Positions 3,600 to 36,874 of a stretch of 42,693 nt of DNA are shown piece after piece. This DNA comes from Candidatus Deferrimicrobiaceae bacterium. GTDB taxonomy: Bacteria; Desulfobacterota; Deferrimicrobia; Deferrimicrobiales; Deferrimicrobiaceae. Under the pieces are notes generated by a model, which worked only from the letters and a program-made list of their open reading frames with translations, was not told where the DNA came from and did not search any database. How positions within the stretch are numbered: position 1 is the first letter of the stretch; the number at the start of each line of letters is the position of its first letter. Where the stretch lies: assembly GCA_036390495.1 (NCBI GenBank), contig DASWBR010000305.1, forward strand, positions 1-42,693, in the 5' to 3' direction. The translations under genes were made by a program, and so were the position numbers.

Positions 3600-4331
3600 A
3601 TGGCGTTCCAGGTGATCCCGGCGATCGACATCCAGGGGGGAAAGGCGGTCCGCCTGCGCCAGGGGCGCGCGGAGGACGCCACGGTCTTCTCGGACTCCCC
3701 CCTCGACGTGGCGCGCCGCTTCGCCGCCGCCGGGGCCACGTGGCTCCACGTGGTGGACCTCGACGGGGCGTTCCTGGGGAAACCCGTCAGCGCCGACATC
3801 ATCTGCCGGATCGCCTCCGCCGCCGGGGTGCCGGTGCAGGTCGGAGGCGGGGTGCGGAACTTCGAGACCGCGTCCCGCTACTTCGCCGCCGGGGTTTCCC
3901 GCGTGATCCTCGGAACGTCGATCGTCCGGGACCCGGAAGAGGTGACCCGGATCACCCGGGCGTACCCCGGGAAGGTGGCCGCCGGGATCGACGCCCGCGA
4001 CGGTCGCGTCGCGATCCGGGGGTGGGTGGAGGTGACCGGCGTGATGGCCGTGGACCTCGCCCGGCAGATCGGGGAGGCCGGGGTCTCCTGCTTCATCTAC
4101 ACCGACATCGCGCGGGACGGGATGATGGTGGGCCCCAATTTCGACGCCATCCGGGATTTCGCCCGGGGGGTGTCCACCCCGGTGGTGGCTTCCGGAGGGG
4201 TGACGACCCTGGACGATCTCCGCCGGCTCAAGGCGATGGAGGGGGAGGGGGTGGCCGGGGCGATCATCGGACGCGCCCTGTACGACGGGTCCATCGACCT
4301 GGCCGAAGCCCTGAAGGTGGAGCGGGAGTAG
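3600..4331 (+). CDS. hisA: 1-(5-phosphoribosyl)-5-[(5-phosphoribosylamino)methylideneamino]imidazole-4-carboxamide isomerase
   Basis: 243-aa ORF. N-terminus [15 protein letters not shown] and a (beta/alpha)8 HisA/HisF-type repeat pattern. Sits in the his run. Confidence 0.95.
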
Positions 4332-4334
4332 TCA

Positions 4335-4497
4335 AGTGCCTCAATTCATCCATACGGTCGCATTCGAGCGCCGCTGCATCCGCTCCTGCTGCGTTGCGTT
4401 CCCTGCGGCGTACTGTAAAGTACGCCTCGGTCACGCGCCTTGCCGGCGCGGCGCATCGACGCTCTCGGTGCAGACCGTATGGATGAACTGAGGCACT
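4335..4497 (+). repeat. Structured intergenic repeat, copy 1 (long hairpin: 25-bp closing stem, conserved interior)
   Basis: 4335-4359 pairs with 4473-4497 (25 bp, one A/C mismatch), and the stem continues inward at 4360-4364/4467-4471 and 4366-4368/4464-4466. It aligns without gaps to 36435-36546 at an offset of exactly 32100. The strand shown is that of the host operon; the functional strand is undetermined. Confidence 0.85.
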
Positions 4498-4501
4498 CGG
4501 G

Positions 4502-5275
4502 ATGCTCGCAAAGCGCATCATCCCGTGCCTGGACGTGAAGGACGGCCGGGTCGTGAAGGGGGTCCGGTTCGTCGACCTCCGGGACGCGGGGGACCCGGTG
4601 GAGATCGCGAGGCGGTACGACCGGGAGGAGGCGGACGAACTCGTCTTCCTCGACATCACGGCGTCCCACGAGAAGCGGGACATCCTGATCGAGGTGGTGC
4701 GGAGGACGGCGGAACAGGTCTTCATGCCACTGACCGTCGGCGGCGGCGTGCGCACGATCGGGGATATCCGGGCGCTCCTGCTGGCGGGAGCGGACAAGGT
4801 GTCGATCAACACCGCGGCGGTGGCCGACCCCGACTTCGTCCGAAGGGCGGCGGAGCGGTTCGGCAGCCAGTGCACCGTAGTGGCGATCGACGCCCGGTCG
4901 GTCCCCGGGGATTCGGGGCGCTGGGAGGTGTACACCCACGGCGGGCGCCGTCCCGCAGGGCTGGACGCCGTGGCGTGGGCCCGCAGGATGGAGGAGTGCG
5001 GTTCCGGGGAAATCCTGCTGACGAGCATGGACCGCGACGGGACGCGGAACGGGTACGACATCGCCCTGACCCGGGCGATCGCGGACGCGGTGCGGATCCC
5101 GGTGATCGCGTCCGGGGGAGTGGGCACCCTCGGGCACCTGCTGGAGGGGCTGACGGCGGGCGGCGCGGACGCGGTGCTGGCGGCCTCGATCTTCCACTAC
5201 GGGGAGCACACCGTGGGGGAGGCGAAGGAGTACCTGCGGCGACACGGCGTTCCGGTCCGGCCCGCTGCGGGCTGA
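4502..5275 (+). CDS. hisF: imidazole glycerol phosphate synthase, cyclase subunit
   Basis: 257-aa ORF with the typical HisF N-terminus [20 protein letters not shown] and ASGGVG near the C-terminus. Confidence 0.97.
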
Positions 5276-8991: not shown

Positions 8992-10779
8992 ATGGCGAGG
9001 CGGAAGCACCCGGAAGGCATCGAGGGGCTGGTGGAGAAGGGGCGTGCGCAGGGGTACGTCACCTACGACGAGATCAACAGCGCCCTCCCCCCCGACATTC
9101 TCACGGGGGACCAGATCGACGACGTCATGGAGATCTTCGGGGAGAACGCCATCGAGGTGGTGGACGACTTCCAGAAGGTCCCCGTGCCCGGAGCGAACCT
9201 GCTGATCGGGGAGGAGGAGGCCGAGGAGGAAGAGGCGTCCGTCGAGGAGGAGCCCGCCGTCGAGGAGGAGGAGGAGTTCGACTACCCGGGCGGGATCAAG
9301 GGGAACGACCCGGTCCGGCTCTACCTGAAGGAAATGGGCGCCATCCCGCTGCTGAACCGGGAGGGGGAAGTGAACCTCGCGAAGCGGATCGAGGACGGGG
9401 AGCGCGAGATCGTCTCCTCCGTGAAAGGGTGCTCCATCGCCCTCGACGAGCTGTTCAAGGTGGGGGAGAAGCTCAAGGCGGGGGAACTTCAGGTACGGGA
9501 CGTGATCAAGGACCTCGACGAGGACTCCACGGACGAGGAGGAGAAGGCCGCCCTGGAGAAGGTGCTCCGGAGCGTCCAGCGCGTGCGGAAGACGTACCAG
9601 TCCGCGCAGGAGGCCGAGCAGCGCCTCCGCCGCGGCGGAATCCGGGAGAAGGAGCGCGCCGCGCTGAAGAACCGGCTTGCCGTCCTGAACGAGCGCGTCG
9701 TGGAGTCGATCCAGGAAATCCACCTGAAGGAACGCCAGATCGAGATCATCGGCGACAAGATCCGACGGTACGCGGATCTGGTGGTGGCCGCGGAGGCGCG
9801 CATCCGGGAGTGCTCCGACCGGATGAGGCTTCCCGAAAAGGATCTCGTCCGCCTGTTCCGGGAGATCCATTCCCGGAAGGACGGCCTGGCGAAGGCCGCC
9901 TCGAAATACCACATCAAGAAGGAGAGGCTCCTCGGGATGGAGGAGACCGTCCGGGAGGCCCGGGGCACCATCCGGAAGGTGGAGCGCGAGTCCGGTCTGT
10001 CCTCCGCGGAGATCCAGGAGACGGTTGCGGCCATCGAGCGGGGGGAGCGGAAGGTCCGGGAGGCGAAGCGGGAGCTCGTCGAGGCGAACCTCCGGCTGGT
10101 GGTCTCCATCGCCAAGAAGTACACCAACCGGGGGTTGCAGTTCCTGGACCTGATCCAGGAGGGGAACATCGGCCTGATGAAGGCGGTGGACAAGTTCGAG
10201 TACCGCCGGGGGTACAAGTTCTCCACCTACGCCACGTGGTGGATCCGCCAGGCGATCACGCGGGCCATCGCCGACCAGGCGCGCACGATCCGGATCCCCG
10301 TCCACATGATCGAGACGATCAACAAGCTGATCCGCACCTCCCGCTACCTGGTGCAGGAACTCGGGCGGGAGCCCACCCCCGAGGAGATCGCCGAGCGGAT
10401 GGACATCCCGCTGGAAAAGGTTCGCAAGGTTCTCAAGATCGCGAAGGAGCCGATCTCCCTCGAGACGCCGATCGGGGAGGAGGAGGACAGCCACCTCGGG
10501 GACTTCATCGAGGACAAGAACACCGCCTCCCCCGTGGACTCGGTGATCAACATCGACCTTGCGGAGCAGGTGGACAAGGTGCTCGGGAGCCTGACCCCCC
10601 GGGAGGAGAGGGTCCTGCGGATGCGCTTCGGCATCGGGGAGAAGTCGGACCACACCCTCGAGGAGGTGGGGCAGGACTTCGAGGTGACGCGGGAGCGGAT
10701 CCGGCAGATCGAGGCGAAGGCGCTCCGGAAGCTGCGGCACCCCAGCCGGAGCAAGCGGCTGCGGACGTTCCTGGAGTAG
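8992..10779 (+). CDS. rpoD: RNA polymerase primary sigma factor (sigma70)
   Basis: 595-aa ORF with an acidic spacer ([14 protein letters not shown]). Region 2 is [27 protein letters not shown] and region 4.2 is [30 protein letters not shown]. Confidence 0.97.
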
Positions 10780-13336: not shown

Positions 13337-13738
13337 TTCCGAGGAGGCCAGGCGGCCGCCGGTCCCCCGAGCGGGGACGGGAGGAAAGTCCGGGCTCCGC
13401 AGGGCAGGGTGCCGGGTAACGCCCGGTGGGGGCGACCCCGAGGACAGTGCCACAGAAAACACACCGCCTCCCGCCTCGGCGGGCGGCAAGGGTGAAATGG
13501 TGAGGTAAGAGCTCACCGCGCGGCGGGCGACCGCCGTGGCACGGCAAACCCCACCCGGAGCAAGACCGAATAGGAGGGCGATCCCGGGGGTGGCGACACC
13601 CCCGGGAGAAGGGCGGCCCGCCCGGGGCCCTCGGGTCAAGGTCGCTCAAGGCGCGCGGCGACTCGCGCCGTAGAGAAATGGCCGCCCCGCGGCGCCTCCG
13701 GCGCCGCGCACAGAACCCGGCTTACGGCCTCCTCGGAA
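13337..13738 (+). ncRNA. rnpB: RNase P RNA, bacterial type A
   Basis: P1 pairing TTCCGAGGAGGCC (13337-13349) with GGCCTCCTCGGAA (13726-13738). Universally conserved P4 strands GGGAGGAAAGTCCGGGCTCC and ACAGAACCCGGCTTA are present, as are AGGGTGCCGGGTAACGCCCGG and GGTAAGAGC. Confidence 0.93.
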
Positions 13739-13785
13739 CCCTGTTCCCCTCCACCAATCCCGCCGGCACCGGCAAACGACGTTTC

Positions 13786-31685: not shown

Positions 31686-31697
31686 CCGGCAGAACGG

Positions 31698-33428
31698 ATG
31701 TCGCGGGGGGACCGCGGGCGAAGGAAGGCGGGGCCGGCAGGCGAGATCGGGGCCGTCCGCAAGGAGTGGGGTGGAAAAATCCGGGTCGCGCTGATCTACC
31801 CCAACCGGTACGCGGCGGGGATGTCCAACCTCGGGTTCCTGCTCGTGCACGCAGGGATCAACGCCCGGCCCGACGCCCTGTGCGAGCGGGTCTTCCTTGG
31901 CGGGCCGGGGGGGCGACCGGGCGTCGCCCCCCCGGGAGGGCGCGGCGGGATCTCCACGGGGGGCCCGGCCGGAGGCCGCACCCTGGAAAGCGGCCGCCCC
32001 CTGTCCGACTTCGACGTCGTCGCGTTCTCCCTCTCCTACGAGAACGACCTCCTGAACGTCCCCCCGATCCTCGCGGCCGGCGGGGTGCCCCCGCTCCGCG
32101 AGGACCGATCGTCCTCCGGCTCCCGGCACCCCCTCGTCGTCGCGGGCGGTTTCGCCGCGTCGCTCAATCCGGAGCCGTCCGGAAGCCTGGCCGACGCGGT
32201 GGTGGTCGGGGACGGGGAGCGGGCCGTCGACACCCTCCTCGACCTCGGGGATTTCCGCCCCGCCGATCCCGGCTTCCTGCGCGACCTGTCCCGGATCCCG
32301 GGGGTCTACGTGCCGGCGGGATACCGGCCGGAGTTCCGGCAAGCCCCCGGAACTCCGCGCGGCTTCCCGCGGCTCCTTTCCCTCCGCGCACTGACGGGAT
32401 TCCCCGGCCGCGTGGCGCGGGAATCCCTCGACCTCCGGGTCCTCCCCCCGCCCCCGCCGATCGCGCTGGCGGAGGAAACCGAGCTGGGGAGCATGTCCCT
32501 CGTCGAGACCTCCCGCGGCTGCCCGCGCATGTGCGGGTTCTGCGCCGCGTCGCACGCCTGCCCGGATTTCCGGGAATTCCCCCTGGAGCGCGTCCGGGCC
32601 GCGGTGGACGCATCGTGGCCCTACCGGAAGAAGGTCGGACTGATCGGGGCGGCGGTGCTGGACTGGCGTCCCTTCCGCGCCCTTTCCCGGGAGATCCTCG
32701 CGCGCGGCGGCACCGTCTCCCCCGCCTCCGTCCGGGCGGACCTCGTGGACCCCGAGGTGGCGGAGATCCTCTCCCGCAGCGGCCACCGCACCGTGGCGCT
32801 CGCCCCGGAGTGCGGCACGGAGCGGCAGCGGGCGCGGGTGGGGAAGTGGCTTCCGGACGAGACCCTCTTCCGGGCCGCGGAAACGCTGGTCCGGGCGGGA
32901 ATCGTCTCCTTCAAGCTCTACTTCCTCCTGGGGGTGCCCGGCGTCTCCCGGGAGGAGGAGGCCGGAGGGATCGCGTCGTTCCTTGCGGGATTCCGGAAGC
33001 GCGTCCTCGCCGCGGCACGGGGGGTCGGGCGCATGGGGAACATCACGGTGGTGCTCTCCCCGTTCGTGCCGAAGCCGTTCACTCCCCTTCAATGGGCGCC
33101 GATGGCCCCGGAGGAGGAACTGGCGGCGAGGGGGCGGGATGTCGCCGCCGCGGTACGGGGGGTGCCCAACGTGCGGCTGTCCGGGGATCGCCCCGCGCAG
33201 GCGGTCGCGCAGGGATATCTCGGACTCTCGGACCGGCGCGTGGCGGCAGACCTCGTCGCCGCGCGCCGCGGAAGGCTCCCCGGGGACAGGCCGGGGTTCG
33301 AGGAGGCCCTTTCGTCGGTCGTCCACCGCGAACGCGATGCCGAAGAGTACTTTCCGTGGGACGTCGTGGACGGGGGACCGGCGAAGCCGACGCTGCGGGC
33401 GCGTTACGAGGCCCTTACGGGAAGATAG
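31698..33428 (+). CDS. radical SAM protein of unknown function
   Basis: 576-aa ORF with a CX3CX2C cluster motif in ETSRGCPRMCGFCAAS. The N-terminal region resembles the TIGR03960-type family as I recall it. Contains a Gly/Pro-rich insert. Confidence 0.75.
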   Translation: MSRGDRGRRKAGPAGEIGAVRKEWGGKIRVALIYPNRYAAGMSNLGFLLVHAGINARPDALCERVFLGGPGGRPGVAPPGGRGGISTGGPAGGRTLESGRPLSDFDVVAFSLSYENDLLNVPPILAAGGVPPLREDRSSSGSRHPLVVAGGFAASLNPEPSGSLADAVVVGDGERAVDTLLDLGDFRPADPGFLRDLSRIPGVYVPAGYRPEFRQAPGTPRGFPRLLSLRALTGFPGRVARESLDLRVLPPPPPIALAEETELGSMSLVETSRGCPRMCGFCAASHACPDFREFPLERVRAAVDASWPYRKKVGLIGAAVLDWRPFRALSREILARGGTVSPASVRADLVDPEVAEILSRSGHRTVALAPECGTERQRARVGKWLPDETLFRAAETLVRAGIVSFKLYFLLGVPGVSREEEAGGIASFLAGFRKRVLAAARGVGRMGNITVVLSPFVPKPFTPLQWAPMAPEEELAARGRDVAAAVRGVPNVRLSGDRPAQAVAQGYLGLSDRRVAADLVAARRGRLPGDRPGFEEALSSVVHRERDAEEYFPWDVVDGGPAKPTLRARYEALTGR

Positions 33429-36101: not shown

Positions 36102-36115
36102 AGGGGGTGCCGGGA

Positions 36116-36415
36116 ATGTTCGTCGCGAGGAACCTCGTCACGGCGCTGGCCACGGTGATCGACTACGCACTGTGGGCCTACATGTGGGCCTTCATCATCC
36201 GGGCGGTCCTCTCGTGGGTCAGCCCCGACCCGTACAACCCGATCGTGCGCGCCCTCTACTCGATCACCGAGCCGGTCCTTTCGTTCCTGAGGAGGAAGCT
36301 CCCGCTGTTCGCGGGGTCGATCGACTTCTCCCCGATGGTCGCCATCCTTGTCATTCTCTTCCTGCAGCGCTTCGTGGTGCGGACGCTGTTCGACCTCGCA
36401 CTGCGGATGCCGTGA
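36116..36415 (+). CDS. yggT: YggT-family membrane protein
   Basis: 99-aa two-TM ORF. IIRAVLSWVSPDPYNPIVRALYSITEPVL is characteristic of YggT/Ycf19. Confidence 0.85.
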   Translation: MFVARNLVTALATVIDYALWAYMWAFIIRAVLSWVSPDPYNPIVRALYSITEPVLSFLRRKLPLFAGSIDFSPMVAILVILFLQRFVVRTLFDLALRMP

Positions 36416-36434: not shown

Positions 36435-36599
36435 GGTGCTGCGTTTCACAAATACGGCTGCATTCGAGTGCCGCTGCATCCGCCCCGGCTTCGTTGCGCT
36501 CCCTCACTGTCCTTGCCCGGTACGCCTCGGTCGTGCGCCTTGCCGGATGCGGCGCATCGACCTTCTCGATGCATCGCCGTATTTGTGAAGCGCAACACT
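36435..36599 (+). repeat. Structured intergenic repeat, copy 2
   Basis: 36435-36458 pairs with 36576-36599 (two G-T and one C/A non-Watson-Crick positions). After a 2-nt bulge the stem continues at 36459-36463/36569-36573 and 36465-36468/36565-36568. The interior blocks are near-identical to copy 1. Confidence 0.85.
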
Positions 36600-36874
36600 C
36601 CGCCACCCTCTCCGTCCGGGTGGTGCCGCGATCCCCGCGGGAGGGGGTCGCGGAGTACGCGGGAGGGGTGTTGCGGATCCGCCTGAACGCCCCCCCCGTC
36701 GAGGGGCGGGCCAACGCGGCCCTGGTCCGGTTCCTGGCGAGGGCCCTCGGCGTTCCCCGGTCGCGGGTGTCGCTGCTGTCCGGGGAGACCGGGCGGAACA
36801 AGATCGTCCGCATCGCCGGCATCTCGCGGGAGGAAGCCCTCGAGGCGCTCGGGGTGCAGCAGCCGGCGGAGTAG
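36569..36874 (+). CDS. yggU: DUF167 (YggU) family protein
   Basis: The core TLSVRVVPRSPREGV...LRIRLNAPPVEGRANAALVRFLA...GETGRNKIVRI fits YggU. The only canonical in-frame start upstream of the first conserved strand and near it is the ATG at 36569, which lies inside the repeat's 3' arm. An ATG at 36494 is the ORF-track alternative. Confidence 0.8.
   Translation: MHRRICEAQHSATLSVRVVPRSPREGVAEYAGGVLRIRLNAPPVEGRANAALVRFLARALGVPRSRVSLLSGETGRNKIVRIAGISREEALEALGVQQPAE

Follow-up and report, generated by a model that had tools for sequence, protein, structure and literature searches.

The 170-nt spacer between hisA and hisF in a 42,693-nt stretch of DNA from a Candidatus Deferrimicrobiaceae bacterium (GenBank assembly GCA_036390495.1, contig DASWBR010000305.1, positions 1 to 42,693 of the forward strand; hereafter the window) is occupied by a long imperfect palindrome at 4336-4496. 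Our analysis places this hairpin in a family that is itself new but of a well-known kind; it is neither a new class of RNA nor a REPIN in the strict sense. We consider it likely, with a probability of roughly 0.7, that the element is a non-autonomous palindrome of mobile DNA, about 160-165 bp long, which resembles a transposable element of the miniature inverted-repeat kind (MITE) and is moved in trans by a transposase encoded elsewhere. The element is mobile, as seen from its presence or absence at four orthologous sites and from its dispersed copies, and its target is a TA-containing site, typically the TAG or TAA stop codon of a neighbouring gene. Terminal inverted repeats are present, and the element is short and non-coding, as a MITE requires.

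Both genes that border the spacer lie on the plus strand and match His_biosynth, hisA at 3600-4331 and hisF at 4502-5275. The hisA stop codon (4329-4331) stands 4 nt before the element and the hisF ATG at 4502 stands 5 nt after it, which agrees with the spacer length given in a preliminary description of this DNA. That description drew the element one base wider at each end, by an extra A-T pair, an immaterial difference; what it observed proved accurate wherever it could be checked. The hisA-hisF copy (copy 1, plus strand) runs from a GTG to a CAC tip and scores 168 bits over model positions 1-169 of the family covariance model described below. Its variable outer stem, a terminal inverted repeat, is formed by a left arm at 4336-4359 and a right arm at 4472-4496. 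Counted from G4336/C4496, 23 of the first 24 ungapped pairs are Watson-Crick and a lone A.C mismatch falls at pair 9, much as the palindrome had originally been portrayed, and the predicted helix extends further inward past this stem. The two halves of a conserved core follow at 4360-4397 (GCATTCGAGCGCCGCTGCATCCGC ... GCGTTGC, with 18 positions imposed by the pattern used to collect the family) and at 4434-4471 (CGCGCCTTGCCGG..GCGGCGCATCGACGCTCTCGGTGC, not imposed by that pattern). Between them, at 4407-4426, lies a predicted apical hairpin, GGCGTACT GTAA AGTACGCC, in the region that in other copies forms a variable, covarying tip and is the site of nested inserts. The minimum free energy of copy 1 under RNA parameters is -99.8 kcal/mol (z = -8.7), and none of 200 shuffles folds equally well.

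A second copy at 36436-36598 (plus strand, 165 bits) belongs to another subfamily and lies between a YGGT-family gene upstream (36113-36415) and a DUF167 (YggU) gene downstream (36620-36874), both on the plus strand. Its hairpin is likewise more stable than shuffled sequences under RNA parameters (z = -6.7), and DNA-parameter folds of the element are stable on both strands. The preliminary description had reported this copy at an offset of 32100 with about 72 percent identity. We measured 73% over the whole element, with indels in the alignment, and 80% along the left 69 nt, where the offset is exactly 32100. Conserved blocks of 24 and 27 nt occur in the window at these two copies only, against 0 expected from shuffles, and a covariance-model scan of the whole window returned the same two, both on the plus strand, at 168 and 165 bits versus 47 and 35 bits on the opposite strand. 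The nearest sampled relatives of the two are 84% and 89% identical to them. Although the window holds just two copies, the idea that the palindrome arose by chance or that this genome recently duplicated a segment has a negligible probability: it is refuted by the more than 100 copies found in unrelated contexts and phyla, and the z-scores of both hairpins and the unrelated flanks of the two copies also speak against it. The earlier judgement that this is not a decaying duplication was correct.

The family was collected with the pattern TTCGAGNGCCGCTGCATCC (18 specified bases) from one genome per GTDB species, which gave at least 120 matches. Most of these are full hairpins of 160-165 nt, the typical length, with about 60% G+C and the same architecture as the window copies. 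A covariance model built from 71 full copies recovers members at 100-187 bits and adds copies that lack the exact pattern inside the same 8-kb loci. The hosts are nearly all metagenome-assembled genomes (MAGs) and span at least five phyla of mostly uncultivated bacteria, with members in Ca. Deferrimicrobiaceae and 'Deltaproteobacteria' bins, which are relatives of the window's own genome, and in Actinomycetota (Solincola and KR13 bins), Gemmatimonadota, Planctomycetota and Polyangiaceae. Mis-binning does not explain this spread, because some host contigs measure 0.1-3 Mb, with long ones from Gemmatimonadota (3.1 Mb), Planctomycetota, Actinomycetota and Polyangiaceae. About 20 of the ~125 copies are cut by or adjoin contig ends (manual tally), and truncated copies occur. 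Within one MAG, copies at different loci are 94-98% identical, and the several subfamilies that share a genome are about 70-77% identical.

Searches of Rfam 15 with both window copies and an expanded copy, in gathering and E-value modes, returned no family match, as the preliminary description had anticipated, and the best scores on the elements came from plant microRNA models at E = 0.05 or worse. The element had no blastn match in plasmid and phage collections, and the four pattern matches in IMG/VR included no real copy according to the covariance model. Judged by these absent Rfam, plasmid, phage and viral matches and by its uncultivated hosts, the family appears to be so far unnamed; this is not fully verified, with literature coverage partial and ISfinder not compared.

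In the common architecture, an outer stem of some 25 bp carries GTG...CAC tips in almost every copy and is otherwise subfamily-specific in sequence. It is followed by a conserved middle of roughly 2 x 35 nt (the ~70-nt core), whose left half reads GCATTCGAGCGCCGCTGCATCC..GCGTTGC and whose right half reads CGCCTTGC..GCGGCGCATCGACGCTCTCGGTGC. Pairing within the core is imperfect, the bulges, mismatches and U-G pairs being fixed, and the variable tip closes in a short covarying hairpin. We quantified pairing in an alignment of 71 copies (A2) with 50 consensus pairs. Left-core invariance in this alignment is partly an artefact, because the copies had been collected with a left-core pattern that imposed 18 of its positions. 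The right half of the core is at least 90% conserved across phyla although it was free of that constraint. Double changes occur at 34 of the 50 consensus pairs and, in the outer stem, at all 19 pairs. Over the 50 pairs, 94% of cells are paired versus 81.7% in column shuffles, with the observed value attained by 0 of 500 shuffles, and sliding the pairing partners lowers the paired fraction to 30-47%. Pairing is maintained by compensatory change.

The preliminary description had argued for selection on base pairing from the two window copies. The seven double changes that it listed are present (pairs 5, 6, 8, 14, 15, 16 and 23 in our numbering, formerly 6, 7, 9, 15, 16, 17 and 24), all seven go from Watson-Crick to Watson-Crick, and one further stem pair is A.C in one copy and T.G in the other. 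Two-copy covariation is by itself no proof of selection, however, because the copies represent different subfamilies and their differences are not the result of evolution in place. The part of the argument that stands is carried by the compensatory change in the 71-copy alignment. The claim that the element is non-coding also held, as copies differ by indels and no reading frame is conserved among them.

Orthologous loci reveal the element as an insertion. The hisA/hisF junction is empty, with spacers of 8-29 nt, in eight relatives (L121, L122 and L124-L129; 73-91% HisA identity). In another relative, L130 (88% HisA identity), the junction is occupied by a different subfamily in the arrangement TAA/GTGG...CCAC/TAA, where slashes mark the element boundaries and the hisA stop codon supplies the left TAA. 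Nothing is inserted at the copy 2 site of L119, a relative with an 86.5% identical YGGT protein. L119 in turn carries a copy, flanked as TTA/../TTA, just after the stop codon of an FtsZ-like open reading frame (ORF), named from its C-terminal peptide only, and the corresponding target in the window (31686-31705, near 31695, plus strand) is unoccupied. Similarly, the copy at L084b is absent from a 93%-identical region of L051, and at L084a and L051 different subfamilies occupy one and the same site, the L051 copy being cleanly flanked by a TTA duplication.

The flanks of the collected copies follow the logo YYTA/GTG...CAC/TAGR. The commonest flank class, CTA/../TAG, fits a TA duplication in a CTAG target, and identical 3-nt flanks (mostly TTA/TTA, also TAA/TAA) were observed 9 times, against a permutation expectation of 2.8 (p = 0.0006). 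A copy that enters the TA of a stop codon supplies, with its initial G, the third base of a new in-frame TAG, on either strand, and such rebuilding would let copies persist within operons such as hisA-hisF. A gene 3' end lies within 20 nt of a copy in 28 cases to its left and in 19 to its right, and convergent flanking gene pairs outnumber divergent ones by 8 to 1. All-against-all clustering of neighbouring genes disclosed no recurrent neighbour, the genes being housekeeping genes, and Pfam likewise identified only housekeeping genes among 84 ORFs adjoining truncated copies.

Several described elements resemble this family, and ERIC and Correia elements appear to be the closest in style. ERIC, or IRU, of Enterobacteriaceae (about 127 bp) is also a small non-coding imperfect palindrome along its whole length with TA at both termini, and it also resides in transcribed intergenic spacers at gene 3' ends, has size variants and lacks a known transposase (PMC3184786). 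We found no sequence similarity between the two families, a comparison that covered plasmid and phage collections and not E. coli genomes. ERIC is confined to one bacterial family, whereas the hosts described here span several phyla, and, unlike in ERIC, the outer stems differ strongly among subfamilies while the inner core is fixed. Reports on ERIC describe copies that carry internal inserts as well as copies that are better conserved than neutral flanks. In Neisseria, Correia elements (CREE/NEMIS) likewise have long terminal inverted repeats, measure 100-160 bp, are often co-transcribed and show presence/absence differences among close strains (PMC3184786). They are AT-rich and restricted to one genus, whereas the new family is G+C-rich and has no promoter-like site. 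Correia elements further possess a TA target duplication, promoter boxes and an IHF site.

Among MITEs, Chunjie of Geobacter uraniireducens likewise occurs inside operons in a related ecological group, with a predicted hairpin that is likewise very stable (about -98 to -130 kcal/mol). We rejected identity with Chunjie by its description (178-235 bp, A+T-rich, 21-bp terminal repeats and 9-bp direct repeats), as compared with about 162 bp, about 60% G+C and apparent 2-3-bp duplications in the new family. Nezha and other IS630-derived or IS5-subgroup-derived MITEs are of similar size (130-170 bp) and use TA or TNA/YTAR targets with 2-4-bp duplications, much as the flanks of the new family suggest for it. 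These MITEs have a known parent insertion sequence (IS) with matching ends, whereas none was found for the new family in about 1 Mb around its copies.

The preliminary description had offered a structured RNA and a hairpin-dependent mobile DNA of the REPIN type as alternatives. Its mobile-DNA branch stands, given empty and filled sites, apparent flanking duplications and many copies, and the specific assignment to REPINs does not. REPIN and REP sequences are likewise hairpin-forming, high-copy, extragenic and non-autonomous, with compensatory maintenance of their hairpins. A REPIN combines two short REP hairpins that bear a conserved GTAG-type tetranucleotide, is linked to a RAYT gene and makes no target duplication (PMC3184786, in part). 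The new family instead forms one long rod with TA/GTG tips, CAC at the other end and apparent TA/TWA duplications; no GTAG-type REP units or short REP pairs were seen by eye (they were not searched for), and no RAYT was present among the genes checked.

In a broader form of this idea, the hairpin would be moved as single-stranded DNA (ssDNA) by an HUH/Y1 enzyme of the RAYT or IS200/IS605 type that recognizes an imperfect hairpin with fixed bulges, and compensation would reflect ssDNA folding. The rod-like fold of the entire element with covariation in each variable helix, the conserved bulges and mismatches of the core, the stable DNA-parameter folds of both strands and one compensatory change between orthologous copies would all suit such an enzyme. 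We nonetheless regard this explanation as rather unlikely. Flanking 2-3-nt direct repeats are enriched, and HUH transposons of the IS200/IS605/RAYT type are not known to make a target duplication. Orientation shows no bias relative to local GC skew (39 against 35) or to gene direction, and no Y1 transposase was found among the neighbour genes sampled (top 25 of 138 families).

Orientation and strand also bear on a role as host RNA. Co-directional cases divide into 9 same-sense and 9 antisense copies, and all flanking genes into 50 and 45 (summed pair categories); the AT-skew signal is weak (p = 0.01). RNA folding energy is lower on the strand opposite to the adopted core orientation in 71 of 71 copies, a difference that we do not count as evidence because it arises from the shared core, and the counts of pairs and of G-U pairs per copy are nearly equal between strands (59.1 and 3.7 versus 60.9 and 4.5). 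With orientation unbiased and both strands pairing about equally, a strand-specific structured RNA gene or cis-regulator, the other branch of the earlier alternative, is not supported. An intrinsic terminator was rejected, there being no terminator-like site at either window copy. A promoter scan of the elements found no promoter-like site, and resemblances to sigma-54, IHF and Xer motifs noticed by eye were dismissed as weak.

A less strand-bound version would make the element a host-selected structured RNA that serves as an RNase III/E processing site, a 3'-end stabilizer or a means of translational coupling, with mobility merely the way in which it spread. Copies do occupy transcribed spacers, both at the 3' ends of genes and within operons; conservation of the core extends across phyla, and GAGG is present in the right arm upstream of hisF. 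Effects on mRNA stability have been reported for ERIC and Correia elements (PMC3184786), a point that we count in favour of such a role, together with an orthologous pair of copies (L006 and L070) that is better conserved than its flanks and is considered below. We judge this reading unlikely all the same. The host evidently does not need the element at hisA/hisF, since the site is empty in most close relatives. Copies show no orientation preference relative to flanking genes, neither a terminator tail nor a promoter was found, and truncated and chimeric copies are common. Moreover, mismatches in the outer stem are mostly non-wobble and not enriched for G-U: a manual tally from the per-pair table gave 124 non-standard cells versus 13 in which one side had changed (mostly to G-U).

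The element's imperfect hairpin, in which unpaired bases are conserved and stems vary, also recalls single-strand recombination sites such as integron attC or Xer-type sites, on which a tyrosine recombinase acts on folded ssDNA. GGCGCATCGA in the right core bears a loose, weak likeness to a XerC half-site. This origin is highly improbable, as the copies are single, dispersed among housekeeping genes and present in both orientations, with no cassette arrays or lone dif-like locus, with termini that by eye are GTG/CAC and not GTTRRRY, and with no integrase among the genes seen nearby.

For the favoured MITE-like element, we propose that a transposase encoded elsewhere in the host genome mobilizes the copies in trans. 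Judged by the apparent TA/TWA duplications of 2-3 nt and by targets similar to YTAR, the likeliest enzyme would be a DDE transposase of a TA/TWA-duplicating family (IS630/Tc1-like, IS5 subgroups or IS30-like), families for which such targets and duplications are characteristic. The GTG/CAC tips would be its cleavage sites, and the conserved imperfect core may be recognized by the enzyme or by a cofactor. If a foldable hairpin or matching ends were required for mobilization, as we suppose, both arms of the outer stem would change together. The two window copies would be old passengers, since their nearest relatives are only 84% and 89% identical and flanking duplications can no longer be recognized at either of them.

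Each window copy is probably transcribed as a long hairpin along with its operon, copy 1 within the his operon with a stem of roughly 25 bp, and effects on mRNA processing or on translation of hisF and DUF167 would be a by-product. The right arm of copy 1 includes GAGG 8 nt upstream of the hisF ATG, which from sequence could serve as a Shine-Dalgarno motif; because it is held in the stem, hisF initiation may need ribosomes terminating on hisA to open the helix. At the second site, the DUF167 frame is open back into copy 2 (36494-36874) and contains an in-frame TTG (36494) and ATG (36569) and, farther on, two GTGs (36620 and 36623). Where L119 has a GTG, in our reading the likely start of DUF167, the window has CTC, and insertion of copy 2 may have shifted the start of this gene.

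A number of observations weigh against this account. The approximately 1 Mb around the copies yielded neither an autonomous element nor a transposase with matching ends. In these loci, looking for a left and a right core separated by more than 300 nt disclosed no parent IS, and the only orphan terminal repeats were a solo remnant in L110 and another close to where L044 ends. Duplication length is uneven, with CTAG-flanked copies fitting 2 nt and others 3 nt, and the window's own two copies have no recognizable duplication. Compensation along the whole rod exceeds what a plain DDE MITE would need, namely matching termini only, and such an element explains neither the phylum-spanning core with its fixed bulges and mismatches nor the conservation of the orthologous L006 and L070 copies. 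The latter are 97% identical, including one C-G to A-T double change, whereas their coding flanks are about 88% identical. Purifying selection as the reason is weakened by recurrent insertion or copy replacement at the same site, as seen for L084a and L051 and for the window and L130. Whole-rod compensation, the fixed core and the L006/L070 pair nevertheless leave room for a hairpin-dependent step on ssDNA or for an RNA role of the ERIC/Correia type.

Another possibility we entertain only tentatively. The ~70-nt core might be the actual payload, a folded ssDNA or RNA module for a conserved protein, moved among at least five phyla by swapping its outer stems to suit local enzymes, and selection on folding, beyond a mere match of transposon ends, would maintain the hairpin. 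If true, the family would be a cross-phylum, cargo-like structured element on a MITE chassis, beyond a deletion derivative of a single IS.

Structural variants of the element were also recorded. A chimera at L096:6606-6774 combines a left arm of the CCAGAG/GGATCC-type subfamily with a GTGCACCG-type right arm, joined in the conserved core, which suggests recombination between copies. Expanded copies in L017 (2861-3109), L019 (3743-3990), L024 (3548-3758), L044 (4536-4782) and L045 (210-496) contain an insert of about 80-90 nt (GGAGTTGTGCCCC...GGGGTACCCCAGGGAGCGTATTTCGTCCGGGAG..GGGGC) at one internal position. This insert is highly structured, has no Rfam match and may be a second small element nested within the first. 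Another nested hairpin module of about 55 nt (GGGGGGACACTCC...GGAGTGTCCCCCC) replaces or extends the tip in L043:4734-4944 and in the L045 copy, and L020, L031 and L083 hold longer variants with inserts.

Other loci display rearrangements at the element. In related MAGs, L047:250-418 and L048:6045-6213 have both flanks in common (93-94% identity), with the element inverted and neighbouring sequence rearranged. L034:3079-3248 and L045:210-496 have a downstream gene in common to the right of the element (96% identical), which from its N-terminal sequence we take to encode an AcrB-like transporter, and unrelated left flanks; the sequence at this one-sided match was either rearranged or joined at the repeat during assembly. 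The only long-range inverted repeat in the loci around copies is formed by the copies at L084:2025-2194 (minus strand) and L084:3293-3462 (plus strand), which bracket about 1.1 kb. Their disposition resembles a composite arrangement and may be coincidental. The solo terminal-repeat-like sequence GTGCTTCAATTCATGAATCC at L110:3132-3190 is followed by an unrelated short hairpin, lies between putative AdoHcyase and S-AdoMet synthetase genes as Pfam suggests, and is probably the remnant of a copy.

Elsewhere in the window, the only Rfam match at gathering score is a full-length bacterial RNase P RNA of class A at 13340-13739 (plus strand, 257.9 bits). A GAGGAG-rich repeat with an 18-nt period at 9206-9274 and 9515-9547 (plus strand) would encode an acidic, Glu-rich stretch in a coding region.

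By itself the family opens no long-standing question. It accounts for the unusual 170-nt spacer of an otherwise compact his operon by insertion of a transposon instead of by a regulatory RNA, and it is a family that could otherwise be mistaken for a novel non-coding RNA in comparative screens. A covariance model and an alignment now exist for a repeat at which MAG assemblies break in Ca. Deferrimicrobiota (MBNT15), Gemmatimonadota, Planctomycetota and Actinomycetota. Finally, with stop-codon sites that different subfamilies re-use, its rebuilding of stop codons and its phylum-spanning core, the family offers a useful case for how small palindromes can be harmless inside operons and how their interiors are constrained.

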